Positions 5,842 through 32,915 are shown, numbered from the stretch's first letter. The stretch is 64,000 bases of DNA from an uncultured Acidimicrobiales bacterium (GCA_938002965.1 CALKZY010000015.1:17633-81632); one strand, 5' to 3'. Numbers and translations: made by a program. Notes: generated by a model not told the origin, from the letters alone.

Positions 5842-6815
5842 ACCAACCACAAAACCACGACCCTGTACCGATCGACCAGCCGATCGCGTCGAGCAGCCAG
5901 AGCCAGACTCCAGCTCCAACTGCCGGATCTGGCCGATTAACGAGGCCGACATCTTTGACCCGTACAAAGATCACTACTACTTCTCCTACAAGCCAGGAGC
6001 CACCCCCTCGGTTGAAGCCCAAACGACGCATCAGTCAGGCCCGCTTGTACGAGATCCGTCAACAGCTTGGCACCCGTGACCTGGCCGTCCTCGAATCGCT
6101 ACGTACCTGGAAGCTGCTAAAGATCGAGCATCTGCGCCGATTGCACTTCGTCCAGCACGCCACCAAAGACACAGCCCTACGAGTTGCTCGCCGGGTCCTC
6201 AGCCGACTCGAAGACACCGGGCTGATCCGCCGACTAGAACGAAAGATCGGCGGAGTTCGAGCCGGATCGTCAGGCTCCATCTTCTGCCTCAGCCCACTCG
6301 GTCACCGACTCCTTGGAGGTCAGACCAAGTACTGGCGCGAACCATCAAAGATGTATGGCGACCACACCTTGGCCATCGCCGAGCTGGGCAGCCTCGCCAT
6401 CGATGCTGCCCGCACAGCCCAAGTCGATCTAGCAGAGATCTCAACCGAACCGAACGTCTGGCGGGCATACAGCTCGCCAACCGGCACCAAGACCCTCAAG
6501 CCCGATCTACTCATCAGGCTCGCAGGGCCAAAATTCGAAGCCAGCTGGTTCATCGAGGTCGACCTCGGTACCGAGTCAACACCCACACTGCGCAAACGCT
6601 GTCAGATCTACCTCGACCACTACCAGTCAGATGAGGAACAAGATCAACACGGCTACTACCCATCCGTGCTCTGGGTCATGCACAGCGAGGACCGCAAAGA
6701 CGCGCTGACCGAAACCATCGAACGCCTGCACCACACCCACTCGACACCGCCCAACCTCTTCCACGTCACCACCAACAACCACGCCATCGACCGGATCATC
6801 GACAGCGTGCGCTGA
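5838..6815 (+). CDS. Replication-relaxation (Replic_Relax, MOB_L-like) family protein
   Basis: wHTH-like HLRRLHF...RVLSRL; HTLAIAE; KPD...WFIEVDLGTES (PD-(D/E)xK-like); AAGGAGG RBS. Confidence 0.85.
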   Translation: MNQPQNHDPVPIDQPIASSSQSQTPAPTAGSGRLTRPTSLTRTKITTTSPTSQEPPPRLKPKRRISQARLYEIRQQLGTRDLAVLESLRTWKLLKIEHLRRLHFVQHATKDTALRVARRVLSRLEDTGLIRRLERKIGGVRAGSSGSIFCLSPLGHRLLGGQTKYWREPSKMYGDHTLAIAELGSLAIDAARTAQVDLAEISTEPNVWRAYSSPTGTKTLKPDLLIRLAGPKFEASWFIEVDLGTESTPTLRKRCQIYLDHYQSDEEQDQHGYYPSVLWVMHSEDRKDALTETIERLHHTHSTPPNLFHVTTNNHAIDRIIDSVR

Positions 6816-6861
6816 CGATCACTACACAAGCACATTCAACGTAAACAAGGAACCCCTACCC

Positions 6862-7473
6862 ATGAAAGGCAGACACAACCAACCACAGACCACCCGCCAC
6901 CCCGAGCCACGGTTCGAGCTACCCGACCCTGACGAGCCAGCGATCTACGCTGCCAGCCTCAGCGACTACAACGCCGGGCAACTTCACGGCCGCTGGATCA
7001 GCGCCAACCAAGACGCCGACGACATGCAAGACCAAGTCGACGAGATGCTGGCCACCTCCAACCTGATTGGCCGAGAAGCCGTCGAAGAATGGGCCATCCA
7101 CGACTACCAAGGCTTCGGCGCCCTGGCCATCAACGAATACGAACGATTGCAAACCATCGCCACCCTCGGCCACGGCATCGTCGAACACGGACTGGTCTTT
7201 GCTGACTGGGCCAACATCACCGGCCGAGACAATGTCGAACACCACGACTTCAATGACCACTACCGCGGCCACTGGCCCAACCTGGAGGCCTACGCCGAAG
7301 AGCTACTCAACGATTTTGGGGCCAACCTCGACCAACTGCTGAAGGACGAGCACTCCTGGCTCCGACCCTATGTCAAACTCGATCTTCTGGCCTTAGCCCG
7401 AGATCTCGCCCACGACCTCGAAACCGCAGAAGCTGAGGACGGCGGCCTCCACATCTTCGACCCACCCGACTAA
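6862..7473 (+). CDS. ardA: Antirestriction protein ArdA
   Basis: IYAASLSDYNAGQLHGRWI, EEWAIHDYQGF, acidic C-terminus with YVKLD..ALARDL. Confidence 0.9.
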   Translation: MKGRHNQPQTTRHPEPRFELPDPDEPAIYAASLSDYNAGQLHGRWISANQDADDMQDQVDEMLATSNLIGREAVEEWAIHDYQGFGALAINEYERLQTIATLGHGIVEHGLVFADWANITGRDNVEHHDFNDHYRGHWPNLEAYAEELLNDFGANLDQLLKDEHSWLRPYVKLDLLALARDLAHDLETAEAEDGGLHIFDPPD

Positions 7474-16600: not shown

Positions 16601-19084
16601 TCAAAATCCGCCGCTGCTGCGGCCGCCGCCAAACGTGTGGCCACCACCGCCGAAACCGCCGCCGAACGATCCGCCACCACCGCCGAAGCCGCCGCCGCCG
16701 AACGATCCGCCACCACCACCGGCGCCGAAACCACCTCCACTACCTGAGCTGCCCCAGCCCCCTTGGCTCCCGCCAATCACGATCCACGTTCCGGATCGAC
16801 GGCGGCGAGCGATGATGCGTTCTTGGACTGCCAGTGCGGTGTCGGCGATGCGTTCGGCGTGCTGGATCTGTGCCTCCGGTGTGGCTGGCAGATTAGCCAG
16901 CGACTCCTCGAGACGATCCAGGCTTGACCCGGCACTAGACTGAATAAGTTCCCAACCGAGAGCTCGTTTGGCTCGAGCGATAGCCCGTTCGGCTCTGGCC
17001 ACCTCGCGTTGAGCTTCCCGCCTGAGTGCCTGCATCCTGGAGTGCTGATCTTGGGCCGAAACCATCAAGTCGTCCATCTGCCGATTTGTGCGGTAGGACG
17101 TTTCAGCGACTCGCAGGAAGTTGGGCTTAACCTGACGAAGCTCCGCTTCCATGCTGGCGATGATCTGGCGAAGTTCGTCAGGGGCGCGACGGGTCGCTTC
17201 ATCGAGATCGACGCGATGATTGGCTACGAAATCGGCCAGATCTACCAGAATCTCTTTGCCCTGGTCGATGAGCAGCGGGGCTTCGACTTGAGCCTTGTCC
17301 AAATCCACCATCAGATCTTCAACCTGATCGAGGAAGCCATCGGCGGCGATGACATGCAAGCCGGCCTGCTCCAAGTGACGACCGGCCTCGTCGAATTGTT
17401 GGGCGTCGAGCGCCTCAGGCATTGGGCCCACACGAACCTGTTCGCCGTATTGAAGTTCACGCAACGCCCGCTCAGGATGCTCTGCCGCCCACTCCCATGA
17501 ATCTCTGGCATGCAAGGCGGCGACGTTACCGAAGCGGCGTCGCACATCGTCGGATCGAGCAGTTTCCAGGGCCACGGCGGCTTCGAGCTCCTCGCTCCAC
17601 TTCTTCAGGCTTTCGACGCGCGACGGAAGTGCCTGGAGATAGTGTCCGACGGCGAAGAGATCGGCCTCAACGGCTTCTACCCGGTCTGAAAGCTGAAGCC
17701 AGTCCAGTTCAAGACCATCAAAGTCCAGGCCCTCAAGATCGGCGCCGATTAGCTCTAACTTCTGGACCTGGCCGGATACCGCCCAACCCTGCTCGGACCG
17801 TTGACCGGCGAGGTCACCGGCACCCTCGAGTTCTCCCTCAAGAAGTTCTTTCTTAGCTGGCACCGCTACCCGAAGGTGGTCCAGGTGCGCCCCGAATGCC
17901 ACGAGGTGATCAAGCGTCTCCTCTTGGAAGTCCAGCGCCCTCAGCAAGTTGACCACCTGCGTCTTAGCGCTTTCGGCTGCATGCAGATCAGCGGCACCGG
18001 GGCCACCGGGTAGCAACTGGTTCAGTACCGCGGCCACGGCGTCGGTGCTGTTGGCGGCTTCTACTGACTCGGAACTTAGCGATTTGAGTTTGTCTTGAGA
18101 GGTGCCGGCGACGACCTTGTCCCAAACGTCGGCTTGCAAGAGTATGCGATCGTGACGCTCGCGGACCGACCCAAGGCGACCGGTTGGCCCGACTAACGAG
18201 CCCTCGAGCTCCCGACGGACCTGAGCCAGTCGACGTCGGCGAGACCCGACGGCGGCCACACCGGCTCCTCCGCCAACAACAGCGACACCGGCCAACGCCA
18301 CTAGCGGCGAAAGTCCACCACCGTCGCCCTCGCTATCGGTAGTACCGGAGCTCGGCTCATCGGCACCTTCGGTTGAAGTTGTCGGATCGGTCGAGGTGCT
18401 GGTGCCCCCAACCTCAGAGCTAATTCGTGAACCAATGATGGTTACGGCATCGGTCATACCTGCGGTGTATTCGCCCTCGGCGAACTGTGAACCCATCACA
18501 TCTTCACGGATGGCGTTGACGTCACCGACAGCGGTCAGCCAGCGATCGCCGACCACGACATCGGACTTCCGATCCTCGACGGACAAGCCAAGAATGATGA
18601 CCTCAGGGTCAGTGGTCCCGCCCGAATCGGAATAGCACGTCCGTATAAGTTCGTCGACGACGGCTACCAAATCGCCGCCCTCGACCGAATCGTAAGAACG
18701 AACAATGACCAGAGCGTCAGCAGGTACAGCGCCGGCGATCACGTCTTCAACATCAGCGACATTCACCGAACCACTGGTGTCGACTACAGCCGCATCGCAG
18801 ACAAGCGTCTCATCGCTCTGGGCTAGGACAGGTGAGGGCGCGAGAACCGCGATGGCGGCGCACGTCAACAGGCTGCTAGCAGCTAGAAAAAGCCGGGCTA
18901 CCGGCGGGCGCCCGGTCACGGCGGTAGAAGTCACAGGACCCCAAGTTACTACCGCCAGGGCTCCAGGCCCCGCTTGGCTCTCCCGAGAAACTCTAACGTC
19001 AAACAGAGAGACCACTCTTGCCCGCGTTCTCATACCGGCTGCTTTCCAAATACCGCCACAACTAGTCCTTACGTTGCTTGCCAC
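16601..19084 (-). CDS. TPM-domain membrane protein with long coiled coil and Gly-rich tail (true start probably downstream)
   Basis: Signal peptide, TPM-like N-domain, TM, heptad region, GGGFGGGGGS tail. Confidence 0.75.
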   Translation of the reverse strand: MASNVRTSCGGIWKAAGMRTRARVVSLFDVRVSRESQAGPGALAVVTWGPVTSTAVTGRPPVARLFLAASSLLTCAAIAVLAPSPVLAQSDETLVCDAAVVDTSGSVNVADVEDVIAGAVPADALVIVRSYDSVEGGDLVAVVDELIRTCYSDSGGTTDPEVIILGLSVEDRKSDVVVGDRWLTAVGDVNAIREDVMGSQFAEGEYTAGMTDAVTIIGSRISSEVGGTSTSTDPTTSTEGADEPSSGTTDSEGDGGGLSPLVALAGVAVVGGGAGVAAVGSRRRRLAQVRRELEGSLVGPTGRLGSVRERHDRILLQADVWDKVVAGTSQDKLKSLSSESVEAANSTDAVAAVLNQLLPGGPGAADLHAAESAKTQVVNLLRALDFQEETLDHLVAFGAHLDHLRVAVPAKKELLEGELEGAGDLAGQRSEQGWAVSGQVQKLELIGADLEGLDFDGLELDWLQLSDRVEAVEADLFAVGHYLQALPSRVESLKKWSEELEAAVALETARSDDVRRRFGNVAALHARDSWEWAAEHPERALRELQYGEQVRVGPMPEALDAQQFDEAGRHLEQAGLHVIAADGFLDQVEDLMVDLDKAQVEAPLLIDQGKEILVDLADFVANHRVDLDEATRRAPDELRQIIASMEAELRQVKPNFLRVAETSYRTNRQMDDLMVSAQDQHSRMQALRREAQREVARAERAIARAKRALGWELIQSSAGSSLDRLEESLANLPATPEAQIQHAERIADTALAVQERIIARRRRSGTWIVIGGSQGGWGSSGSGGGFGAGGGGGSFGGGGFGGGGGSFGGGFGGGGHTFGGGRSSGGF

Positions 19085-19122: not shown

Positions 19123-19716
19123 TCAACTTGCGCCCTGGCCCAACAAAGCCGCCTCAAGAAAAGATAACAGCGTGCGGCGCAAGGTTGCCGCCGCCCTCAG
19201 ATCGAGTTGCAGATCAAGCGCTCTGAGCACTTCGGTCTCGGTCACCGAACCGGCCACAACAGCGTAGGAGGACAACAAGATAACCCTCGGATCGTTGCGT
19301 AACAGTAGGCCTTCGTCCATGTAGCCACGAAGAGCCGCCTCGGCTGCGGCCAGGGTCGGGCGAAGTTCCTCGACAACACCTTCGGACCATGGTGGCCCCA
19401 GCCGGGATGTTTCGCGAAGTACTCCGATAAGTTCCGGTCGCCTCACCGCTAACTCGAAGCTGGCTCGAACCACCGCTTCGACCGCCGGCCACCCAGGGCT
19501 ACTTTGCTTGGCCGCGGCAGCCAACACTCCTAGCAAATCCTGGGCAGATCGGGACAAAACAGCCTCAATCAGCCTGCTTTTGGACCCGAAGTGGTAAAGG
19601 ATCGACTGCTTGGTTAGACCTAGTCGCTGTGCGAGATCGTCCAGCGAGGTCCCGTCAACTCCACGATCGGCAAACGCTAAGGTCGCTTGATTCAGTACCC
19701 GATCCTTGGTATCCAC
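19123..19716 (-). CDS. TetR family regulator
   Basis: TSLDDLAQRLGLTKQSILYHFGSK. Confidence 0.93.
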   Translation of the reverse strand: MDTKDRVLNQATLAFADRGVDGTSLDDLAQRLGLTKQSILYHFGSKSRLIEAVLSRSAQDLLGVLAAAAKQSSPGWPAVEAVVRASFELAVRRPELIGVLRETSRLGPPWSEGVVEELRPTLAAAEAALRGYMDEGLLLRNDPRVILLSSYAVVAGSVTETEVLRALDLQLDLRAAATLRRTLLSFLEAALLGQGAS

Positions 19717-19717
19717 T

Positions 19718-19760
19718 TACCAAATGGTAGACAGATTGCTTGCAAGGCGCTAGACAGATT
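19718..19760. promoter_or_regulatory. Candidate TetR operator region between tetR and the lipid operon
   Basis: Palindrome TACCA-AA-TGGTA (19718-19729); direct repeat TAGACAGATT at 19728 and 19751. Confidence 0.45.
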
Positions 19761-19819
19761 TCAGTGAGTGCGTTGAACCCACCTCGGTGTTGCCAAAACT
19801 GTCTGGACCGGAGGACCCA

Positions 19820-22156
19820 ATGATTGCCGACCAGCTGGCCGGAAAACGAATAGCCGTAACAGGGTCCACAGGGTTCTTGGGGACGGCGCTCGTAGAACGA
19901 CTTCTTCGGGGTGCGCCCGACTGCCACATCGTTCTTCTCGTCAGGGCAGGGCGTCGATCATCGCCGTCACAGCGGGCCCGACGTGAGATCTTCCGCAACG
20001 ATGCCTTTGGGCGGCTACTGAAAGACCTTGGCAAGGAGTCGTTTTGGGACGAGATCGATCGCCGAGTCACTGTCATCCAGGGCGACATCAGCAAAGACGG
20101 ACTTGGCCTCGATGACGAGGGCCGCACGGCGCTAGCGCAGTGCGACATCGTCATTCACTCAGCGGCCACAGTTAGCTTCGATGCCCCTCTTGATGGTGCC
20201 GTCGAGGTCAATCTTCTCGGCCCAACACGCATCGTGGAGACACTCAGCGATTTGGGCGTCAAGCCCCATCTCGTAGCCGTCTCGACCTGCTACGTGGCCG
20301 GAAACCGAAGAGGTCGGGCGCCAGAACAGCTCCTTTCCGACAGCCCGTTCCACATTGACGTCGACTGGCGTGATGAAGTCATGGCCGCACGGCGCACCAG
20401 GGCCGATTTCGACGCCTTGTCACGAACGGCAGCTCAACTCGAAGACTTCCGTAAACAGGCCCGGTACGAGCTGGGAGCAGCCGGCACACCTCTGTTAGCG
20501 GCCAAAACCGAACAGCTCCGAGGCCGATGGGTTTCCGATCAGCTGGTCGAAGCCGGCCGAGCCCGCGCCGCGTCACTCGGCTGGCCCGACGCCTACGCTT
20601 ACACCAAAGCATTAGGCGAACGAGCCCTCGACGAAAGCAAGGGCGACATCCCGGTCTCCATCGTGCGGCCGAGCATCATCGAATCGGCTTGGGCCCAACC
20701 GTTTGCCGGTTGGATCAAAGGCTTTCGCATGGCCGAACCCATCATTATCAGCTACGCCCGAGGGCTCCTGAAGGAATTCCCAGGCGTTCCCGAGGGTGTT
20801 ATCGACGTCATCCCGGCCGACCTCGTGGTCCACGCCATCATCGCTGTGGCCGCCCGAGGTCATGCCGGTGACAACAACATCGATGTCACCCAGGTCGCTT
20901 CGGGAACAGCCAATCCGCTCCGGTACCGCCACCTGGTCAACCTGGTCTCAGAATGGTTTACCGATAATCCGCTCTACGACCGCAAGGGCCAGCCCATTGC
21001 TGTACCCGAGTGGTCGTTTCCCGGACGCGGAGCGGTCGAGCGTCAACTGGACCGAGTCGAGAAGAATCTTGGCCGGGCCGATCGGGCCTTGAAAATGTTG
21101 CCGTTGCGAGGGCGCCAGGCAATGGTCACCGCCGAGGTCGAGGATCGCAAAGAACAAGTCTCACGTGCCGTAGGGTACGTGAAGATTTATGGCGCCTACG
21201 CCGAATGCGAAGCCTTGTACGGGGTAGAGAACCTCATCAAGCTCCATCAGTCCTTGGACGAGAGTGACCAGATCGAGTTTGGCTGCGATCCCGGCATCGT
21301 GAATTGGGATCACTACGTCCAGAACGTCCATCTCCCTTCGGTGGTCGAACACGCCCGGGTAAAGACGACCGGCGAGCGAAGCGACCCGGACCAGCGCACC
21401 AAGCGTCTACGGTCCCGGGTTCTGGCACCCGAGCGTCAACTGGCGGCTTTCGACCTCGAAAACACAATCATCGCTTCCAACGTGGTCTTCAGCTACGCAT
21501 GGTTGGCAACGAGGAAGCTCGGGCCTCGTGACCGCATGCGCTTCACCATGAAGACCCTGGCCGAAGGGCCAGCCCTGCTGGCCCTTGACCGCCGGGACCG
21601 AACCGACTTCCTGCGACACTTCTACCGTCGTTACGAGGGAGCGCCGGTTGATGACCTCGACATTCTCGGCCCCCAGCTGTTGGCCGATCACGTTTTGACC
21701 AAAGCCTTTCCAGCAGCCCTTCGCCGCGTGCGGGAGCACCGGCGCCTGGGCCATCGAACCGTGCTCATCACCGGAGCGCTCGATGTTGTGGTGAAACCAC
21801 TGGGCCCCCTGTTCGACGACGTCATCTGCGCCGAGATGTCGCAGCGCGACGGACGTTACACCGGTGAGCTGTTGGCCGTGCCCCCTACCGGCGAAGTGCG
21901 AGCACAGGCCCTGCGAGACTACGCCGACGCCCACGGACTGGACTTGGCCGAGTCGGTGGCCTACGCCGACTCGTCGTCCGACCTGCCGCTGCTCGATGCA
22001 GTTGGCTTCCCGGTGGCAGTTAATCCTGAATCAAGACTGGCCTCGATGTCAGCCAAACGCGGTTGGCTTATCGAGTATTGGTCGAAGGCCGAAGGCGGCA
22101 CCGACAAGACGTTGCCGCTCGGTCCCCTGCCCGCGGCGAGACGAAGCCGCAAGTAA
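19820..22156 (+). CDS. Fatty acyl-CoA reductase (FAR/male-sterility SDR) fused to a HAD-IB hydrolase
   Basis: TGSTGFLG, IHSAATVSFD, YAYTK, IVRPSIIES; C-terminal FDLENT...AYADSSSDLP...AVNP; GGAGG RBS. Confidence 0.88.
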   Translation: MIADQLAGKRIAVTGSTGFLGTALVERLLRGAPDCHIVLLVRAGRRSSPSQRARREIFRNDAFGRLLKDLGKESFWDEIDRRVTVIQGDISKDGLGLDDEGRTALAQCDIVIHSAATVSFDAPLDGAVEVNLLGPTRIVETLSDLGVKPHLVAVSTCYVAGNRRGRAPEQLLSDSPFHIDVDWRDEVMAARRTRADFDALSRTAAQLEDFRKQARYELGAAGTPLLAAKTEQLRGRWVSDQLVEAGRARAASLGWPDAYAYTKALGERALDESKGDIPVSIVRPSIIESAWAQPFAGWIKGFRMAEPIIISYARGLLKEFPGVPEGVIDVIPADLVVHAIIAVAARGHAGDNNIDVTQVASGTANPLRYRHLVNLVSEWFTDNPLYDRKGQPIAVPEWSFPGRGAVERQLDRVEKNLGRADRALKMLPLRGRQAMVTAEVEDRKEQVSRAVGYVKIYGAYAECEALYGVENLIKLHQSLDESDQIEFGCDPGIVNWDHYVQNVHLPSVVEHARVKTTGERSDPDQRTKRLRSRVLAPERQLAAFDLENTIIASNVVFSYAWLATRKLGPRDRMRFTMKTLAEGPALLALDRRDRTDFLRHFYRRYEGAPVDDLDILGPQLLADHVLTKAFPAALRRVREHRRLGHRTVLITGALDVVVKPLGPLFDDVICAEMSQRDGRYTGELLAVPPTGEVRAQALRDYADAHGLDLAESVAYADSSSDLPLLDAVGFPVAVNPESRLASMSAKRGWLIEYWSKAEGGTDKTLPLGPLPAARRSRK

Positions 22157-22202
22157 GCATGAGGGCACACCAACCAGTGAGCACAGAAAGCAAAGTGCGT
22201 AC

Positions 22203-23816
22203 GTGAGCGAACAAACTAGAGCCAATCCCCGTCCCGGTTTCGTGCTTGAGGTCGATCGTCGGACCCCGCCGATCCTCTTCCACCACGGTGAGGGTTTCCG
22301 GCTGGAGAAACTGCCGGTCGGGCGAAGCAGAGTGATCTACCCCGGCGAGCCGCTTGTGGGGATCAAGGATCCTGACGCGGCGATCCGAGACGCGCTGCTA
22401 AACCCCATCGACGATGATCCACTGCCCTCGATCCTGCGAGCCGGCATGAAGCTGACCATCGCCTTCGACGATATTTCTTTGCCCCTGCCACCCATGCAGC
22501 GGCCCGACAGTCGACAGCGAATTATCGAGGCCGTTCTCGACATGGCGGCTGAGGCCGGGGTGGACGACGTTCACCTCATCGCTGCCCTGTGCCTTCACCG
22601 CCGAATGACCGACAACGAACTACGACACGCTGTCGGTGATCGGGTGTTCGAGGCCTTCGCTCCCCACGGCCTGCTTTACAACCACGATGCCGAGGACCCC
22701 GACGGGATGGTCATCCTCGGCCACACTGACAAAGGTGAAACAGTTCAAATGAACAAGCGGGCGGCTGAATCCGACCTGCTCATCTACGTCAACATCAATC
22801 TGGTGTCGATGGATGGAGGCTGGAAAAGCACTGCCACCGGCCTGGCCGGCTACGAAGGCGTCAAAGCCCACCACAACGTCCACACGCTGCGCCACTCCAA
22901 GTCCTTCATGGATCAGGACAACTCCGAGTTGCACCGCTCAAACTGGCGACAGGGCGACGTCATCAAGGCTCACGGGCCCCGAATCTTCCAAATCGAGTCG
23001 ACCCTCAACACCAACACTTTCGGTCGTCAAGGGCCGATGTCGGTCTTGCAAAAGCGCGAGTGGGAGTGGACGGCTCGAGACCGGGCATCGTTCGCCGCCA
23101 TGCACGCTGGACTCAACCGAATGCCACCAGCGGCCCGACGCCGAGTCTTCCAAGGGTGGAAGGCCCCGTACGACATCACGTCGGTCCAAGCAGGCGAGGT
23201 CGAAGCCGTCCACCGCAAGACAACCGAAGCTGTCTACGCCCAACACCTGGTCCCAGTTTCCGGACAGACCGACGTTCTCACGATGGGTCTCCCCTATCTG
23301 ACCCCGTACAACGTCAACTCGATCATGAATCCGATCCTGGTGATGGTCCAGGGCCTCGGATACTTCTTCAACCTGTACCGGGGCAAGCCACTGGTCCGTG
23401 AGGGCGGTGTGCTGATCATGAGCCACCCGACGCCGTGGGAGTTCCACCCGGTTCACCATCCGAGCTACATCGACTTCTTCGAAGAAGTCCTGGCCGAGAC
23501 AACAGACCCGGTCGAGATCGAACAGAAATACGAAAAGCAGTACGCCGAAGACGAGTGGTACCGCCACCTGTACCGCACCAGCAACGCCTACCACGGCGTG
23601 CATCCGTTTTACATGTGGTATTGGGGCTCACACGCCATGCAGTACCTGGGCGGAGTCATAATTGTCGGGGGCGACCCTCGGTCTGTACGTCGGTTAGGAT
23701 TCCGTCCGGCGTCAACACTTGAGGACGCCTTTGAAATGGCTGAAGATGTGGTCGGTCCGAGACCGACCGTGACTCATCTTCACAATCCACCTATCCTGAT
23801 GGCAGACGTAACCTAA
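22203..23816 (+). CDS. Lactate-racemase (LarA/DUF2088) domain protein
   Basis: TIAFDDISLP, LCLHRRMT, NHDAED, GGWKS, AHH; start set at GTG 22203. Confidence 0.8.
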   Translation: MSEQTRANPRPGFVLEVDRRTPPILFHHGEGFRLEKLPVGRSRVIYPGEPLVGIKDPDAAIRDALLNPIDDDPLPSILRAGMKLTIAFDDISLPLPPMQRPDSRQRIIEAVLDMAAEAGVDDVHLIAALCLHRRMTDNELRHAVGDRVFEAFAPHGLLYNHDAEDPDGMVILGHTDKGETVQMNKRAAESDLLIYVNINLVSMDGGWKSTATGLAGYEGVKAHHNVHTLRHSKSFMDQDNSELHRSNWRQGDVIKAHGPRIFQIESTLNTNTFGRQGPMSVLQKREWEWTARDRASFAAMHAGLNRMPPAARRRVFQGWKAPYDITSVQAGEVEAVHRKTTEAVYAQHLVPVSGQTDVLTMGLPYLTPYNVNSIMNPILVMVQGLGYFFNLYRGKPLVREGGVLIMSHPTPWEFHPVHHPSYIDFFEEVLAETTDPVEIEQKYEKQYAEDEWYRHLYRTSNAYHGVHPFYMWYWGSHAMQYLGGVIIVGGDPRSVRRLGFRPASTLEDAFEMAEDVVGPRPTVTHLHNPPILMADVT

Positions 23817-23835
23817 GGGTTCGGGGAGAGTACAC

Positions 23836-24729
23836 GTGAGCTGGCTGCACTTCATCTCGCAACCTCCGTCGACGCCGAAAGGGGTCGACAAAGTAAGGGC
23901 GACACCGAAAGCTGGTGTTCATTTTGATACGGACTGGGCTTATCGAAGTCCGGCCAAGATTGTGCGGCGCGCCGGCGTCTGGGGCTTTTTCAAACCCGCC
24001 GTCCGGCTGTACGCCAGTCCACGGGTAGTCGGCGTTGACCGGCTCCGAAACATCAAGGCGCCCGTCATCTTCGCCGCCAACCATCACAGTCACGCCGACA
24101 CCAGTGTTCTGCTGGCCACGCTGCCGTCCAAGCTTCGCGACGACCTGTCGATCGCTGCCGGAGCCGACTACTTCTTCCCCAACCGAGTGGCGGGAACCAT
24201 TTCGGCGCTGTTCATCGGGGCTATTCCGATTGAGCGCAAGCGACTGTCCAAGCTTTCGATCCGCAACAGTCTCCGTGCTTTGGAGAAAGGCCGCAGCCTG
24301 CTGATCTTCCCCGAGGGCGGTCGAAGCCCAGACGGCTACAGCCGTGAGCATCGACCGGGCGCAGCCTATTTGGCCAAGCGGGGCAAGGTGCCGGTGATTC
24401 CCGTCTACCTCGACGGCACCGGGTCCATCCTGCCCAAAGGCAAGAACTGGCCGACACGGGGACGAAGCGCCGTGGTCTTCGGTGATGCGATGAAGATCGA
24501 CGATGACGAAGATCCACGGGTATTCGCCAAGAGAATCGAGCGTCGGATCGGCGAGCTGGCCGACGAATTCGGCTCCGGTTGGTGGCAGGCTCGTAAGAAC
24601 GCTTACGCGGCCGAAACGCCGGAACCAACAGGTCCCGATGCTGGCGCTTGGCGTCGCCGCTGGGCCCTCGGCCCGAAGCCAAGCGAGCAGCGAACCAGCC
24701 CAAACAAGCCAAAGTGGCCGGAGATCTGA
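23836..24729 (+). CDS. Lysophospholipid acyltransferase (PlsC family)
   Basis: NHHSHAD (HX4D), FPEGGRS. Confidence 0.9.
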   Translation: MSWLHFISQPPSTPKGVDKVRATPKAGVHFDTDWAYRSPAKIVRRAGVWGFFKPAVRLYASPRVVGVDRLRNIKAPVIFAANHHSHADTSVLLATLPSKLRDDLSIAAGADYFFPNRVAGTISALFIGAIPIERKRLSKLSIRNSLRALEKGRSLLIFPEGGRSPDGYSREHRPGAAYLAKRGKVPVIPVYLDGTGSILPKGKNWPTRGRSAVVFGDAMKIDDDEDPRVFAKRIERRIGELADEFGSGWWQARKNAYAAETPEPTGPDAGAWRRRWALGPKPSEQRTSPNKPKWPEI

Positions 24730-24776: not shown

Positions 24777-25370
24777 TCAGCGGCGATCGACGCCGTCTAG
24801 TTCCGTGTCCGCCGGATTCTGATCAAGCTCGGGGTCGTCGAGATCGGCACAACGAGCAACATCAGGGCGTTCGCCGCAACTGAGGCCAAATTGCTCGTAC
24901 CCACTGTCGAGCGGCGAGTTGCGGAACAGTTCATCGCAGGCCGAACCGGATCCGGCTTCGCAGTCGTCCCACAGCAGATCGAGTTCGCCGTCGTCGCCGT
25001 AGCTGGCCGAGTCATCGACACGAGCCAAGACGCCGGCATCAGTTGACGAGCCGGACAATGCCTCTTCAGAATCGGTGTCGTCGTTCATGACAGCCTGAGC
25101 AGCTAGGCAGGCCGCCCTCAGCTCGTCCTCTAGAACGTCGTCGTAGTTGTTGCGATCAATTTCCGCCGAGCCCAACCGCAGCACACAGTCAACGACCTCA
25201 GCAGAATCACCGGAGGCGACCAGTGCAGTTCGAACCTCGTCGCGGCCGTCGGCCTGAGGCGGCGCATCGTCCACAAGCGCGCTGCAACCAGCGAGACCTA
25301 GTACGGCTACGCCTGCGGCCAAAGCCATAGTTCCGGCGAGAACTCGATGAGGAGATTGGCGGCCGGTCAT
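24777..25370 (-). CDS. Hypothetical Cys-rich lipoprotein
   Basis: Lipobox LAGC; several C-terminal Cys. Confidence 0.7.
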   Translation of the reverse strand: MTGRQSPHRVLAGTMALAAGVAVLGLAGCSALVDDAPPQADGRDEVRTALVASGDSAEVVDCVLRLGSAEIDRNNYDDVLEDELRAACLAAQAVMNDDTDSEEALSGSSTDAGVLARVDDSASYGDDGELDLLWDDCEAGSGSACDELFRNSPLDSGYEQFGLSCGERPDVARCADLDDPELDQNPADTELDGVDRR

Positions 25371-26794
25371 CGAAGAAGACCCTTACCTTCGCCGACAAGC
25401 TCGATCCATGTTCGACCTGGGGTGAGTTCGATGGCCGAACCGCCGGAAACCAGCGTCGGGGCAAGGCTCAATGAGGGCCTGTTCCAACGTCCATCGATAC
25501 GTTTGCCGTCGGTAAAGACTGTCACGTCTCCGGCTCCGACGAACACAAACTCCGGGACGTTGGCGCCAGTCGAGTCAACCATTCCGGTTCGCACTTCACG
25601 CGCCTCGATTACGACGACGTTTGCCGCACTCACCTGCTGACCGGAACTGGTCAAGTGCGGGCTACCGCCCTGCGTTCGCAGCCAGGCCGAACCGTTCCAG
25701 GTCCATCCGGCCGTCGATGCCCGATAGGCGACCGAGAAGCTGGTGGCCGGAACCGCAGTCGGATGACCCGAGTCGACCCCCCGACCTGCTGGCCGATAAG
25801 CAAACTGCGGCGGAGGCGGGCCAGGCTGAGCCGACGCCCAGTGGTCGGCGGTATCGGTGTACAGATTTGATGGGGCTCGCCGTCCGCTGCTTCGCCAATA
25901 GCCAGAGGATGTGCCTGCGTTACGATTCTGGACGGTTGGTTGAGCCCGAATCAGACCCTCGGTCACCTCGTTCGCTCCCGAGTACATCAAAAGCGGCGAG
26001 CCGAAACCGTTGATAATCCCGATGTCGGTCGTGCGTGCCGATCGAACCGGCCCAACGGTCGACGACGTCGAGTGAAAGACAGCGGCGAAACGAGTAACGC
26101 CGCCCTCGACCTCTTCTTCGATGACGATGTCAGCGGCATTCAGGCCTGATTGAGGACGGGCTGCGGGGCTGTTGTCAATCTTGATGATTGCGGCAGGGCG
26201 ACTCGGCACCTGCCCCGCAAGGCCCGTCAACGGCTGGATGCCTGCTGCCACCGACGGTGGCGACCCCAGCGGATCAACGATCCGCTGATTGCGGCCCAAG
26301 GTGCCCAAATATCCCTTATACAACGAGGCCACACCTCCGCTGACCCCCGGAACCGTGGTGACAACAGTCGCGGCCCGCCCAGTCGGGCTTACCGCTTCGG
26401 GCGTAATCGAAGACCCACCGTTGGTCGTGTCGGCCATTGTCGTCGTCGACTCCCCCTGTGGACTCGTTGTCGAGGTGACGGTTGGACGCTCGATGCGCCA
26501 TGGGAGTTCCTCCACCGCGTCCTCGGCATAGGCGTACGATCCACCACCCGGTGGTCGCGCTAACTCGCCTGCAGCCGATTCAGAGAATCGAGCGCTAGGT
26601 AACTCATTGTCACCTTCGTCCGCTGTCACAACATCATCGAGCACGTCAGCTCTGGTTAGTGCTCCTTTACTGGAGTCCGCCGACCCATTGGCCTCCACCG
26701 AGGCTCCCCCGCCGCAACCGGCGAACCCCAAGGCGGCAACCATGAATAGTGTTGTGCCCCTCATTGCTCTGACCCTCATTGCCCTGACCCTCAT
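25367..26794 (-). CDS. DUF3048 (YerB-like) lipoprotein, paralogue 2
   Basis: PLTG, KIDN..AARPQSGLNAADIVIEEEVEGGVTRF, GPVRSAR, PGRTWI; lipobox FAGC. Confidence 0.85.
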   Translation of the reverse strand: MRVRAMRVRAMRGTTLFMVAALGFAGCGGGASVEANGSADSSKGALTRADVLDDVVTADEGDNELPSARFSESAAGELARPPGGGSYAYAEDAVEELPWRIERPTVTSTTSPQGESTTTMADTTNGGSSITPEAVSPTGRAATVVTTVPGVSGGVASLYKGYLGTLGRNQRIVDPLGSPPSVAAGIQPLTGLAGQVPSRPAAIIKIDNSPAARPQSGLNAADIVIEEEVEGGVTRFAAVFHSTSSTVGPVRSARTTDIGIINGFGSPLLMYSGANEVTEGLIRAQPTVQNRNAGTSSGYWRSSGRRAPSNLYTDTADHWASAQPGPPPPQFAYRPAGRGVDSGHPTAVPATSFSVAYRASTAGWTWNGSAWLRTQGGSPHLTSSGQQVSAANVVVIEAREVRTGMVDSTGANVPEFVFVGAGDVTVFTDGKRIDGRWNRPSLSLAPTLVSGGSAIELTPGRTWIELVGEGKGLLR

Positions 26795-26797
26795 TGC
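26758..26797. repeat. 15-bp tandem repeat, 2.7 copies, encoding MRVRA-MRVRA-MRG
   Basis: Minus strand GCAATGAGGGTCAGG GCAATGAGGGTCAGA GCAATGAGGG. Confidence 0.85.
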
Positions 26798-28104
26798 AGT
26801 GCACCCGACCCCAGCTCGATCAGTTGAATCCAAGTACGTCCCGGTTCCAGTTCGATGACCTCGCCATTGCTATCGGTTAGCGTCGCCACGCTGGCCAGCG
26901 TGGGGCGGGTCCATCGGCCTTCGATTCGCTGGTCGCCAACGAAGACCGTCACCGGACCCGAACCAACAAAGACCGACTCCGGCACCTGTCCCCCGGCCGA
27001 ATCCACCATTCCGGTGGCAACTCGATCTAGCTCTACGACAAGTACGTTGGCTGCAGCTACCGCTTCGCCGGAAACGAGTTCGTGTTGCTTCCCTCGCTGG
27101 TGGCGGATCCACTGCGATTCATTCCACGTCCACCGAACTGGCGACGCTGGGTAGGCAATGGCGAACTCGGCCGAGGTGTCTCGCGAGACTTCGGTCCCGG
27201 CGGCTCGATAGCTGAATTGCTGAGGAGGTGGGCCGCCATCGGCCGAAGCCCAATGAGGGGCGGTATCGGTGTAAACGTTCGACGGGGCTTGTCGGGTCTC
27301 ATCCCGCCAGTACCCAGATGATGAGCTGTAGCTCCGATTCCGGATGGCGGTCTGCCCCCTGACAATCATTTCGGTAATGTCGTTAGCCCCCGAGTAGAGG
27401 TAGAGCGGCTCGCCCAGGCTTGAGACCAAGGCGACATCGGACGTTCGACCTGACCGAACCGGACCAACGATCGAAGGAGTCGAATGGAAGATTGCGGCGA
27501 AACGAGTAACCCCACCCTCGACTTCTTCCTCGATCACGATGTCAGCAGCGTTCAGTCCTGTCTGCGGGCCGGCGGCCGGTCCGTTGTCGATTTTTACTAC
27601 CGCGGCGGGCCGATCCGGTATCGATCCGGGCAGCCCAGTAAGAGGCAGTATGTCCTCACTCGGTTCGGGGGGATCGGTGACGGGTTCGGCAATCTGCTCA
27701 TCGACTCCAAGGCCACCGAGTACGCCCTTGTAGATGTTCTCGGGATCTCCCCCTGCCGGGCCGGGCACCGTGGTGACGGGCGGCAGCCCGCTTCCGGTGG
27801 TGGTCGGTGGAGATGAGCTGTCGTCTCGCGGCTCGTCGGCACCTGCGGTATCCATGCTCTCACTGGTTTCAGCGGCGCTCGCCTCGACACCGAGCGTTGT
27901 TGTGGCGGCGGACACATCGTCCTCAGAGGCCAGTGCACCTTGCCCGTCGCCGTTGCCACTGCAGCCGACCATGAGGAAGACCCCAAGTGCCGCCAACGTT
28001 GCCATGGCCATGCTGCGGGGTTGTTTTGCCTTTTCAGCGCGCACGTTCGAACGTATGAAAGTTGTAGTGCCTTGGCAGTCCATTCGTGACCTCCGACTGC
28101 CCAA
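26791..28104 (-). CDS. DUF3048 (YerB-like) lipoprotein, paralogue 1 (start probably ~28044 or ~28011)
   Basis: Same motifs as paralogue 2; lipobox MVGC. Confidence 0.85.
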   Translation of the reverse strand: MGSRRSRMDCQGTTTFIRSNVRAEKAKQPRSMAMATLAALGVFLMVGCSGNGDGQGALASEDDVSAATTTLGVEASAAETSESMDTAGADEPRDDSSSPPTTTGSGLPPVTTVPGPAGGDPENIYKGVLGGLGVDEQIAEPVTDPPEPSEDILPLTGLPGSIPDRPAAVVKIDNGPAAGPQTGLNAADIVIEEEVEGGVTRFAAIFHSTPSIVGPVRSGRTSDVALVSSLGEPLYLYSGANDITEMIVRGQTAIRNRSYSSSSGYWRDETRQAPSNVYTDTAPHWASADGGPPPQQFSYRAAGTEVSRDTSAEFAIAYPASPVRWTWNESQWIRHQRGKQHELVSGEAVAAANVLVVELDRVATGMVDSAGGQVPESVFVGSGPVTVFVGDQRIEGRWTRPTLASVATLTDSNGEVIELEPGRTWIQLIELGSGALQ

Positions 28105-31514: not shown

Positions 31515-32915
31515 TTATCCGGCCTTGGCCGATTCGTGTCCGGGCGGGAACGTGAGCGCCAGTTCCGACTTGGTCGGCTCGCGATCTTGCCTGGCCTGAT
31601 CGGGCAACAACATGGCGATCCGGGCCATAAGGTCTTCGGTGGCCGCATCAACATCCTCTTCAGGAAAGAACGGCTCGCCTACAGCGATGGTCACGACCGG
31701 TGGATCAGCCAGATTGAGAAGATACGGCACACGAGATGACCGGGGCCAGGCTTTTTCGGTCCCCCAGATTCCGACCGGCACCAGCGGGGATCCGCTGGCT
31801 AACGCTAGCCGGACGGCACCAAAGCGGCCCTTGAGGACCGGATCGAAGAACTGACGCCCACGCGGAATTGTTCCCTGAGGAAAGACGGCGATAAGTTCGC
31901 CTCCTTGGAGAGCTCTGGCCGCCTCCAACATCGGTGTTTCGCTACCGCTCCCCCGGTCGACGCGGATTGCCCCAAGGGCTGTGGCCAACGACCCGACCAC
32001 CGGAGCATCCGTCACCTCTTTCTTGGCCAGGAAACGGGCCGGCCGGCCTCGTTGGTTCGACAGAAACGAGACGACCAGAGGATCAAGGTAGCTGCGGTGA
32101 TTACTGGCCACGATGGCCGCTCCGGCCTCGGGTAGATTCTCGACGCCGGTGATTCGCATGTCGATCCAAGGAAACAACTCCTCCCGGGCAAGCATGGCCA
32201 TGGCCCGCTGCGGCTCCAGGCCGACCGGCTTAGGAACACCGGGTGGGGCATTGAACCATGAGACTGTCCAGCCACGTGTCTTGGCGTAGGCGAATAGGCG
32301 TGGGTCGGGGTTGACGGCAACCGGATTGCCGACTCCGATCAGCATCGGGATGTCAAAGAAACTGTCGGAGTATGCGTAGCTTTGGTCGAGGTCGATCATG
32401 TTGGCCCGAGCCCAGACCTTGACCGATCGGGCTTTGCCCTGTGACCAAACAAACTCGCCATCGATCGTCCCATCAAAGGCTTGGTCGTGGCCGACGCGAT
32501 AGCGGGTTGCCAAGACGTCGTCGAAGCCGAGGATGTCAGCGAAGGGTTTAACCAACTGGTACGGCGTTGTCGTGGCCAACACCACTTTGCGGCCGGCGGC
32601 TCTGTGTTCGTCAATGGTGATCTTGGCAAACGGCTCAACGAGCCCGGCCAGCGTTGGGGCCAGGTCGATAGCGGCGTCGTTGACCTTGTCCACCGGCCAC
32701 CCCTTTGCCCCTCGCGCTCCCTGACGAGTTAGGAGAATCGAGGGTAGGTTCTCACCGAAGATATCAAAGATCTTGAAGGCGAATCCTTCGCCGGGTATCG
32801 GATCAGCCGACAGCAGCCCGTGATGACGGAGAGCCCGCGACAGGACCGGGCCGCTGGCGCCGAGCAGAAGTGTGCGGTCGAGGTCGAAGAAGGCGGCCGA
32901 CTTTGTCATTCTCAC
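31515..32915 (-). CDS. HAD-IB hydrolase / PlsC acyltransferase fusion
   Basis: FFDLDRT, YAYSDS..D, NHRSYLD, FPQGT. Confidence 0.9.
   Translation of the reverse strand: MRMTKSAAFFDLDRTLLLGASGPVLSRALRHHGLLSADPIPGEGFAFKIFDIFGENLPSILLTRQGARGAKGWPVDKVNDAAIDLAPTLAGLVEPFAKITIDEHRAAGRKVVLATTTPYQLVKPFADILGFDDVLATRYRVGHDQAFDGTIDGEFVWSQGKARSVKVWARANMIDLDQSYAYSDSFFDIPMLIGVGNPVAVNPDPRLFAYAKTRGWTVSWFNAPPGVPKPVGLEPQRAMAMLAREELFPWIDMRITGVENLPEAGAAIVASNHRSYLDPLVVSFLSNQRGRPARFLAKKEVTDAPVVGSLATALGAIRVDRGSGSETPMLEAARALQGGELIAVFPQGTIPRGRQFFDPVLKGRFGAVRLALASGSPLVPVGIWGTEKAWPRSSRVPYLLNLADPPVVTIAVGEPFFPEEDVDAATEDLMARIAMLLPDQARQDREPTKSELALTFPPGHESAKAG

Follow-up and report, generated by a model that had tools for sequence, protein, structure and literature searches.

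We analysed a stretch of 64,000 nucleotides (nt), referred to here as the window, from the genome of an uncultured, marine Acidimicrobiales bacterium (GCA_938002965.1, CALKZY010000015.1:17633-81632). Between positions 19123 and 24729 it contained a TetR gene and, divergent from it, an operon encoding an acyl-CoA reductase (FAR) fused to a HAD-IB domain, a homologue of LarA, and a PlsC-type acyltransferase. The operon was homologous and syntenic to clusters of the type of elb, the ether-lipid cluster of Myxococcus xanthus, and its LarA homologue belonged to the ElbC family. The following features were recognized at the locus, with lengths in amino acids (aa):

19123..19716, minus strand: TetR-family regulator, divergent from the operon; PF00440 (TetR_N), 44.4 bits
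19728..19804, no strand assigned: candidate operator; direct copies of TAGACAGATT at 19728-19737 and 19751-19760 and inverted AAACTGTCT at 19796-19804, from a repeat search
19820..21380, plus strand: FAR domain of the fusion protein; PF07993 (NAD_binding_4), 197 bits; PF03015, 25.3 bits
21380..22156, plus strand: HAD-IB domain (ElbB-like), fused to the reductase; TIGR01490, 109 bits (cut-off 98.3); PF12710, 106 bits
22203..23816, plus strand: LarA homologue of the LarAH14/15/16 family (ElbC-like), 537 aa; NF052592, 875.9 bits (cut-off 740)
23836..24729, plus strand: PlsC/AGPAT-type acyltransferase; PF01553, 75.2 bits

The listing of open reading frames (ORFs) and the Pfam and NCBIfam matches placed the TetR, FAR-HAD, LarA-like and PlsC genes where the first-pass annotation of the window had put them, and the motifs it had named could be located as well (DLENT in the HAD domain; LHRRM, NHD, GGWKS and HH in the LarA homologue). 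The FAR-HAD fusion was a single ORF of 789 aa (19787-22156), likely starting at ATG 19820, which is preceded by GGAGG. Two copies of TAGACAGATT, 23 nt apart, with the inverted AAACTGTCT just upstream of this ATG, constitute a candidate TetR operator in the intergenic region between the regulator and the operon. The third copy lay between GTG 19787 and ATG 19820, which favours the latter as the start. For the LarA homologue, encoded within ORF 21864-23816, the start is likely GTG 22203, in agreement with the N-termini of group-14 proteins in the supplement of Desguin 2020. Intervals of 46 and 19 nt separate the three plus-strand genes, and the gene after them is convergent, so that the three were taken to form one operon.

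The window proteins were compared by tblastn with 80 related Acidimicrobiales loci, with counts uncorrected for contig ends. The LarA homologue was matched in all 80 loci, PlsC in 79, HAD in 76 and FAR in 73; at loci without a PlsC, HAD or FAR match, the gaps fell at contig ends. With these three genes so regularly beside the LarA homologue, the arrangement of the operon is not due to chance. A TetR homologue lay upstream in 53 of the loci, and matches to Ddl, MurF and aconitase were present in 50, 37 and 32, respectively. The LarA homologue was the most conserved gene of the cluster, with 69–88% identity across the order. Among the matches listed, 56 of 77 Acidimicrobiales genomes carried a gene of the LarAH14/15/16 family, as did 98 of the 401 Actinomycetota genomes that made up a phylum sample.

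The gap between the HAD and LarAH genes was enlarged by approximately 1.2 kb or more in 39 of the 76 loci that had both matches. A zinc-type alcohol dehydrogenase (Zn-ADH) was found between the FAR-HAD and LarAH genes (for example L031:5781-6980) in 39 of the 80 loci. Fourteen ORFs from related loci were scanned against Pfam: 12 matched ADH_zinc_N, one matched SnoaL_2 and one gave only a weak match. The insert agrees with the frequency of COG1063 (88%) beside group 14 in Table S1 of Desguin 2020. The window operon had no Zn-ADH; a copy 53–56% identical to it was present in the same genome but unlinked (G000:C34:150280-151611; L172:7280-8611). Just downstream of this copy, past one small ORF without a Pfam match, lay a radical SAM/SPASM gene. 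In at least two related loci, L055 (~6500-6998) and L046 (~6600-6998), a small SnoaL-like (NTF2-fold) ORF stood between the dehydrogenase and the LarA homologue, and no homologue of this ORF was found in the window's genome.

The LarA homologue matched NF052592 over model positions 1-519 of 520, while Pfam detected the Lar_N domain alone (127 bits). An AlphaFold2 model built from a 45-sequence alignment had a predicted local distance difference test (pLDDT) score of 96.1 and a predicted template modelling (pTM) score of 0.94. The top 19 fold matches in the PDB were all LarA-family chains, led by 9q3k_A (E 3.1e-35, TMt 0.85); the single-histidine structures 9q3k and 9q3j ranked first, followed by classical LarA structures. 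The best match by sequence was 9q2u (LarA_Sp; E 4.8e-37). In a HMMER alignment to 9q2u, D90, H132 and K208 corresponded to Asp73, His115 and Lys195 of LarA_Sp. H224 was equated with the Ni-binding His by the alignment and by its +16 spacing from the Lys; the text of the structure paper numbers this residue differently. Thus, the ligands of the nickel-pincer (NPN) cofactor were kept (D90 for the ribose, K208 for the thioamide link, H224 for Ni), together with the catalytic histidine H132. None of the four residues varied among 81 Acidimicrobiales sequences, nor among the 81 sequences of the elb-type set described below. The loop that carries the second catalytic histidine, His174, was a four-residue gap in the alignment, and the position of the Arg that binds the carboxylate or NPN phosphate (Arg75; Lys76 of LarA_Sp) was occupied by Leu93, with Leu in 80 of 81 relatives and X in the remaining one. 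The absence of a second catalytic histidine from LarAH groups 14 and 15 is stated in section 2.1 of a 2025 Protein Science paper, and purified LarAH14 from Frankia was inactive in seven hydroxy-acid assays (Desguin 2020). Given Leu93, the deleted His174 loop and the seven negative assays, the LarA homologue is, as judged from its residues, probably not a hydroxy-acid racemase and lacks the features for two-base racemisation of a carboxylic acid. With its Asp, His, Lys and His retained, it may be a cofactor-competent NPN enzyme.

The wider branch was more variable. His132, Lys208 or His224 was lost in 25 of 45 diverse representatives (alignment A2; for example P0007, P0010, P0015, P0019 and P0021), and many Actinomycetota genomes held two to four family matches. 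The sequences suggest that cofactor-free paralogues accompany a competent copy, like group 16 of Desguin 2020. Five apparent LarAH-PlsC fusions (P0071, P0063, P0094, P0022 and P0059) were rejected; P0071 contained an Arg/Pro-rich linker that looked out of frame, and the others broke off. Another family member (P0073, 947 aa, 36% identity) was joined to a chlorophyll a/b-binding domain; it may be a copy from a eukaryote (an alga) or two genes merged in the model. The ESM Atlas gave a lead to a Myxococcota-rich Lar_N cluster (score 0.92). The 'LarAH15' of a 2024 JBC paper, a Phytophthora gluconate epimerase, follows another numbering and has no bearing on group 15 of 2020.

The reductase motifs TGSTGFLG (GxxGxxG) and YAYTK (YxxxK) were conserved among the relatives, while the match of the fusion protein to PF03015 (Sterile/FAR_C) was weak, at 25.3 bits against a cut-off of 35.4. 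In the acyltransferase, the HX4D (H83..D88) and PEGGR motifs were conserved in 78–80 of 80 sequences; these correspond to the HX4D and EG(T/G)R motifs of PlsC/AGPAT proteins. The HAD domain kept the Thr of motif II and the DSxxD of motif IV but departed from the DxDx(T/V) of motif I and the Lys of motif III. Motif I read D-L-E-N-T; among the 76 Acidimicrobiales loci with a match, D, L, E and T were each found in 76 and N in 74. In motif III, Arg replaced Lys invariantly (77/77 relatives). By comparison, the ElbB-like HADs of elb-type loci had D (47 sequences) or E (17 sequences) at position D+2 and kept the motif III Lys in 65 of 66. A paralogue of the operon HAD (34% identity) was found elsewhere in the window as a HAD (PF12710)-PlsC (PF01553) fusion encoded by one 466-aa ORF (31515-32915, minus strand). 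It has a canonical-looking Lys at motif III and is probably the housekeeping HAD-PlsC of actinobacteria.

In the available part of a review, M. xanthus ElbA and ElbE are described as NAD-dependent epimerase-family proteins, ElbB as HAD-like, ElbC as of 'unknown function', and ElbD as a combination of FAR1-like, acyl-CoA synthetase (ACS), acyl carrier protein (ACP) and AGPAT-like parts. A figure legend, the portion of a 2026 PNAS paper that was available, assigns elbA-E to MXAN_1531 to MXAN_1527. This locus-tag order makes elbC MXAN_1529, which the supplement of Desguin 2020 lists, with Anaeromyxobacter genes, in LarAH group 15 ('unknown function'); ElbC is therefore a member of LarAH group 15. 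In Table S1 of the same work, the context of group 15 comprises COG0560 (100%), COG0451 (150%) and COG1022 (75%), and that of group 14 comprises COG0204 (88%), COG0560 (88%), COG1063 (88%) and COG3320 (50%).

Our comparison with elb rested on these papers and on elb-type metagenomic loci rather than on the M. xanthus genome itself. Group-15-like representatives of the family were aligned (alignment A1) and the alignment was scanned against metagenome contigs, which returned 80 elb-type loci. The HAD gene lay directly upstream of LarAH in 63 of the 67 loci with room for it, a FAR followed within 800 nt downstream of LarAH in 41 of 55, and the acyltransferase shared an ORF with the FAR in 24 of 37, giving the gene order HAD, LarAH, FAR-AMP-binding-PP-binding-acyltransferase. 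At locus L158, a 1471-aa ORF matched NAD_binding_4, Sterile, AMP-binding, AMP-binding_C, PP-binding and acyltransferase domains in Pfam, and a TetR gene preceded the cluster. The 1501-aa ORF of locus L113 had the same set without the PP-binding match and was followed by an Epimerase-family short-chain dehydrogenase/reductase (SDR). ElbC-like proteins beside ElbD-like genes passed NF052592 (834.7, 834.8, 832.4 and 759.6 bits), and the cut-off of TIGR01490 was passed by ElbB-like proteins as well as by the window HAD. Identities to the window operon for L113 and L158, respectively, were 37% and 28% (HAD), 47% and 50% (LarAH), 27% and 32% (FAR), and 35% and 35% (acyltransferase). Over all elb-like proteins, the ranges were 27–41% for HAD and 44–53% for the LarA homologue against ElbC-like proteins; against ElbD-like domains they were 26–36% for FAR (full length) and 29–40% for the acyltransferase.

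A reciprocal search against the elb cluster, which the first-pass annotation had proposed as a check, was run with elb-type metagenomic loci: the ElbB-like, ElbC-like, ElbD-FAR and ElbD-acyltransferase parts of L113 and L158 each found the window operon as their best match in the window's genome. The annotation's idea of a split elb-like pathway in an actinobacterium thus gained the backing of homology and synteny with elb-type clusters, and its statement that elb includes a HAD gene was correct, as the available part of the review gives ElbB. It did not anticipate that elb already contains the LarA-like gene, as elbC.

Co-occurrence with cofactor genes was assessed in a class sample of 251 Acidimicrobiia genomes, of which 59 carried the LarAH family above the cut-off and 56 carried LarC. 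LarC was present in 54 of the 59 carriers (absent from five) versus 2 of 192 non-carriers, and in one of these two another, weak LarA match lay beside LarC. LarB adjoined LarC in all three loci examined, and LarE was present in five of five LarC-positive relatives. In an Acidimicrobiia genome of another order, larE, larC and the LarAH gene lay within 5 kb (G113:C18:21577-26563). Within its class, the LarA homologue thus co-occurs with the NPN synthesis genes. In the phylum sample, 272 of the genomes had LarC; LarC being common across the phylum, co-occurrence is informative only within the class. Some genomes in the phylum tallies are flagged as unpublished, and these tallies carry none of the main conclusions.

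We regard the operon, with moderate confidence, as a compact, re-partitioned elb cluster in which the LarA homologue would carry out a redox step and the product would be a 1-O-alkyl glycerolipid. The FAR domain of ElbD would here be fused to the ElbB-type HAD, the acyltransferase domain of ElbD would correspond to the separate PlsC gene, and ElbC to the LarA homologue; with the ACS-ACP module missing, the general pool of acyl-CoA or acyl-ACP would be drawn on. For the catalytic steps, we infer the following course. The reductase would deliver a fatty aldehyde or alcohol. The LarA homologue, with bound NPN, would perform a 'hidden redox' reaction at the C2 hydroxyl of a glycerol-phosphate-type backbone; in the preferred version, glycerol-3-phosphate and a fatty aldehyde would react via a hemiacetal to 1-O-alkyl-dihydroxyacetone phosphate (1-O-alkyl-DHAP) and water, redox-neutral overall. 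An NAD(P)H dehydrogenase would then reduce the ketone, namely the Zn-ADH, which half of the relatives have within the operon and which is unlinked here. Finally, PlsC would acylate sn-2 and the HAD would remove the phosphate. By analogy with the genetics of M. xanthus, where elbD disruption removes ether lipids according to the accessible portion of the review, the product is most likely a 1-O-alkyl glycerolipid.

The specific chemistry is proposed far more tentatively. ElbC and LarAH groups 14 and 15 could represent an AGPS-independent, ether-bond-forming NPN enzyme of bacteria that moves a hydride from C2 of glycerol-3-phosphate (or of a lyso-lipid) to a hemiacetal-derived oxocarbenium ion and so gives 1-O-alkyl-DHAP, a possibility that we rate as doubtful but worth stating. 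Such a hydride shuttle requires one base only, would explain the companion NAD(P)H dehydrogenase, and fits the finding that an aldehyde, not an alcohol, is linked to ElbD. The excerpt of the review available to us describes the M. xanthus ElbD route as largely AGPS-independent and calls its steps to the alkyl ether unknown. In the accessible part of the work on NphT, NPN can shuttle hydride between molecules.

Several observations weigh against the proposed pathway. The window's assembly (4.69 Mb, 57 contigs, 91.46% complete) contained no match to LarB or LarC, and for LarE only PP-loop matches below the cut-off (best 42 bits against 150); tblastn with the LarB and LarC of relatives also returned nothing from it. 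The remark of the first-pass annotation that larB, larC and larE are absent from the window was accurate and extends to this whole assembly, so the co-occurrence that it had asked about held in Acidimicrobiia but was not seen in the window's own, incomplete assembly. Matches to the neighbours of the lar locus in the nearest relative (G214, L171) were scattered over the window's genome (28–53% identity), a pattern compatible with either an assembly gap or a deletion. LarB, LarC and LarE were likewise not found in the good carrier genomes G003, G005, G142, G220 and G187. In a hand tally of the phylum sample, 12 of 98 carriers lacked LarC and 186 of 303 other genomes had it. In the operon, Pfam detected no AMP-binding or PP-binding (ACS-ACP) domain, with only generic FadD-like matches elsewhere in the genome, and no ElbE/ElbA-type SDR, the best candidate elsewhere being 26% identical. 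The HAD site, with E at D+2 and Arg for Lys, is non-canonical, so that phosphatase activity is not assured. In a sponge preprint, gene-cluster families 5–10 hold only elbD and elbB homologues; an ElbD is thus not always accompanied by a LarA homologue in sponge symbionts. The available part of the review mentions no test of elbC on its own. In Pontiella, which carries an ElbD homologue, ether lipids were not detected. No report of ether lipids in Acidimicrobiia was found in a literature search whose sources were available in part.

Four other explanations were considered. The operon may serve to make neutral or storage lipids of the ester type (a fatty alcohol, a wax ester, or an acylglycerol formed via a HAD phosphatidate phosphatase and PlsC), with the LarA homologue as an accessory and no ether bond formed. 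A reductase with an acyltransferase also follows the logic of wax esters, the fusion at 31515-32915 shows that HAD and PlsC pair without a LarA homologue, and, as Pontiella indicates, an ElbD homologue is no guarantee of ether lipids. In favour of ester lipids, too, isolated ElbD showed no acyltransferase activity and gave no fatty alcohol. We nevertheless consider them unlikely, since they do not account for the LarA homologue being both cofactor-competent and better conserved than any other gene of the cluster, or for its place between ElbB-like and ElbD-like genes across distant lineages. Also against them, elbD disruption abolishes the ether lipids of M. xanthus, as the accessible review text has it. 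Alternatively, the LarA homologue may be a C2 epimerase or racemase of the backbone that interconverts sn-glycerol-3-phosphate-type and sn-glycerol-1-phosphate-type substrates (or a lyso-lipid) via a transient ketone; inversion of the backbone and formation of the ether bond were the two roles that the first-pass annotation had suggested for the LarA-like enzyme. Inversion of a C2 hydroxyl stereocentre by way of a keto intermediate is common to all LarA enzymes characterised, triose-phosphate genes lie beside those of the nearest solved relatives (group 17-like), and the part of the review at hand gives the M. xanthus ether triglyceride a 'rac' name. Inversion is nonetheless quite improbable for a protein with a single catalytic His and a deletion of the loop that bears the second; the authors of the single-His structures argue against bidirectional two-base racemisation by such enzymes, and even with inversion, ether formation in the ElbD route would lack an enzyme.

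A further possibility concerns 2-hydroxy substrates. Here, the LarA homologue would set the configuration, or shift the carbonyl, of a 2-hydroxy fatty acyl thioester or 2-hydroxy aldehyde, the FAR would reduce it, and 1,2-diol or hydroxy-alkyl lipids would be acylated by PlsC. Long-chain 1,2-diol lipids occur in some thermophilic bacteria. The family's name and descent suggest chemistry on 2-hydroxy acids, and with Leu93 in place of the carboxylate-binding Arg, a thioester or aldehyde would suit the site better than a free acid. There was, however, no 2-hydroxylase or related gene in the operon or among the genes scanned against Pfam at four loci, related or elb-like, and the sole genetic evidence on this type of cluster, from the available portion of the review, concerns glycerol ethers; we consider these substrates very improbable. 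Finally, the LarA homologue may work without NPN here, either binding some other ligand or serving, without catalysis, as a subunit for lipid binding or scaffolding, in a genome unable to make the cofactor. The assembly without larB, larC and larE and at least five high-quality relatives in the same state are consistent with this, as is the loss of His132, Lys208 or His224 in 25 of 45 branch representatives. The four cofactor residues were kept, however, in the window protein and in the homologues of two genomes without lar genes, G003 (L016) and G005 (L047), which is hard to explain without cofactor binding. Moreover, the assembly is 91% complete, and in the nearest relative G214 larC and larE lie approximately 0.8 kb apart on one contig, so that a single assembly gap could hide both; uptake of the cofactor from neighbours is also conceivable. 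An NPN-free role therefore seems rather remote to us.

The operon is flanked by two minus-strand ORFs without a Pfam or NCBIfam match, of 827 aa (16601-19084) and 197 aa (24777-25370), the latter followed by two tandem DUF3048 genes (25367-28104, minus strand). The flanking ORFs and the DUF3048 genes were common only to the closest three to five relatives. The stretch was present in three DNA runs of one marine-metagenome study and in no RNA run listed.

In the literature searched, which left subscription papers and bioRxiv supplements out of reach, there was no statement of ElbC as a LarA/NPN-family protein and none of NPN in ether-lipid synthesis. One Haloferax annotation paper, in its accessible part, joins the terms nickel-pincer and ether lipid. 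The raw facts for the link between ElbC and LarAH are already contained in the supplement of 2020. A 2025 survey regards the part played by the elb proteins in forming the ether bond as not conclusively demonstrated. As a putative cofactor-competent NPN enzyme, ElbC would be a concrete candidate for ether-bond formation in the ElbD route, and the orphan LarAH groups 14 and 15 would gain a testable substrate class outside 2-hydroxy acids. If this is correct, NPN would be a lipid-biosynthetic cofactor and Acidimicrobiia (marine, sludge and sponge lineages) would be unrecognised producers of alkyl glycerol ethers. Environmental surveys take full-length ElbD as the marker of bacterial ether-lipid potential. 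The split form may score poorly in such screens, which would matter in Acidimicrobiales and Actinomycetota given the carriage of the family gene (56/77 among the matches listed, and 98/401, respectively), and alkyl glycerol ether biomarkers may come from a wider range of sources than assumed.

The LarA homologue can be compared with the single-histidine proteins LarA_Sp and LarA_Bw (9q2u, 9q3k and 9q3j). All are long (~500 aa), have one catalytic His and retain the Asp, Lys and His cofactor ligands. LarA_Sp and LarA_Bw have Asn at His174 and Lys at the Arg75 position and occur in carbohydrate or triose-phosphate contexts, whereas the window protein, in a lipid context, has a four-residue deletion at His174 and Leu at the position of Arg75. 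With LarAH group 14 (for example Frankia Franean1_4168) it shares the family model, the missing His174 and the neighbours COG0204, COG0560, COG1063 and COG3320; Desguin 2020 lists this group as of 'unknown function' and draws no link to elb or lipids. NphT, an NPN-dependent hydride transferase with an aldo-keto-reductase fold, has an unrelated fold and sugar substrates, and is a mechanistic analogy only; within the accessible part of its description, it is a precedent for a hydride moving between two carbons or molecules. The animal FAR1-GNPAT-AGPS route and the minor M. xanthus route (MXAN_1676) resemble the proposed pathway in a reductase-supplied alkyl donor, an acyltransferase, a reductase for the keto intermediate and the proposed alkyl-DHAP, and differ in the ether-forming catalyst, which would be an NPN enzyme here rather than the flavoenzyme AGPS.

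The closest known system is M. xanthus elbABCDE (MIBiG BGC0000871). The window operon differs in that its FAR is fused to the HAD, whereas that of ElbD is fused to ACS-ACP-acyltransferase, and in that its acyltransferase is a separate gene. It has no ACS, ACP or ElbA/ElbE SDR; in the place of the SDR, 39 of the 80 relatives have the Zn-ADH, which is unlinked here. Motifs I and III of its HAD are altered (E and R). Both systems comprise a HAD-IB protein, a LarAH14/15/16-family protein, a FAR and an AGPAT-type acyltransferase, and one elb-like cluster (L158) also has, like the window operon, a TetR gene upstream.

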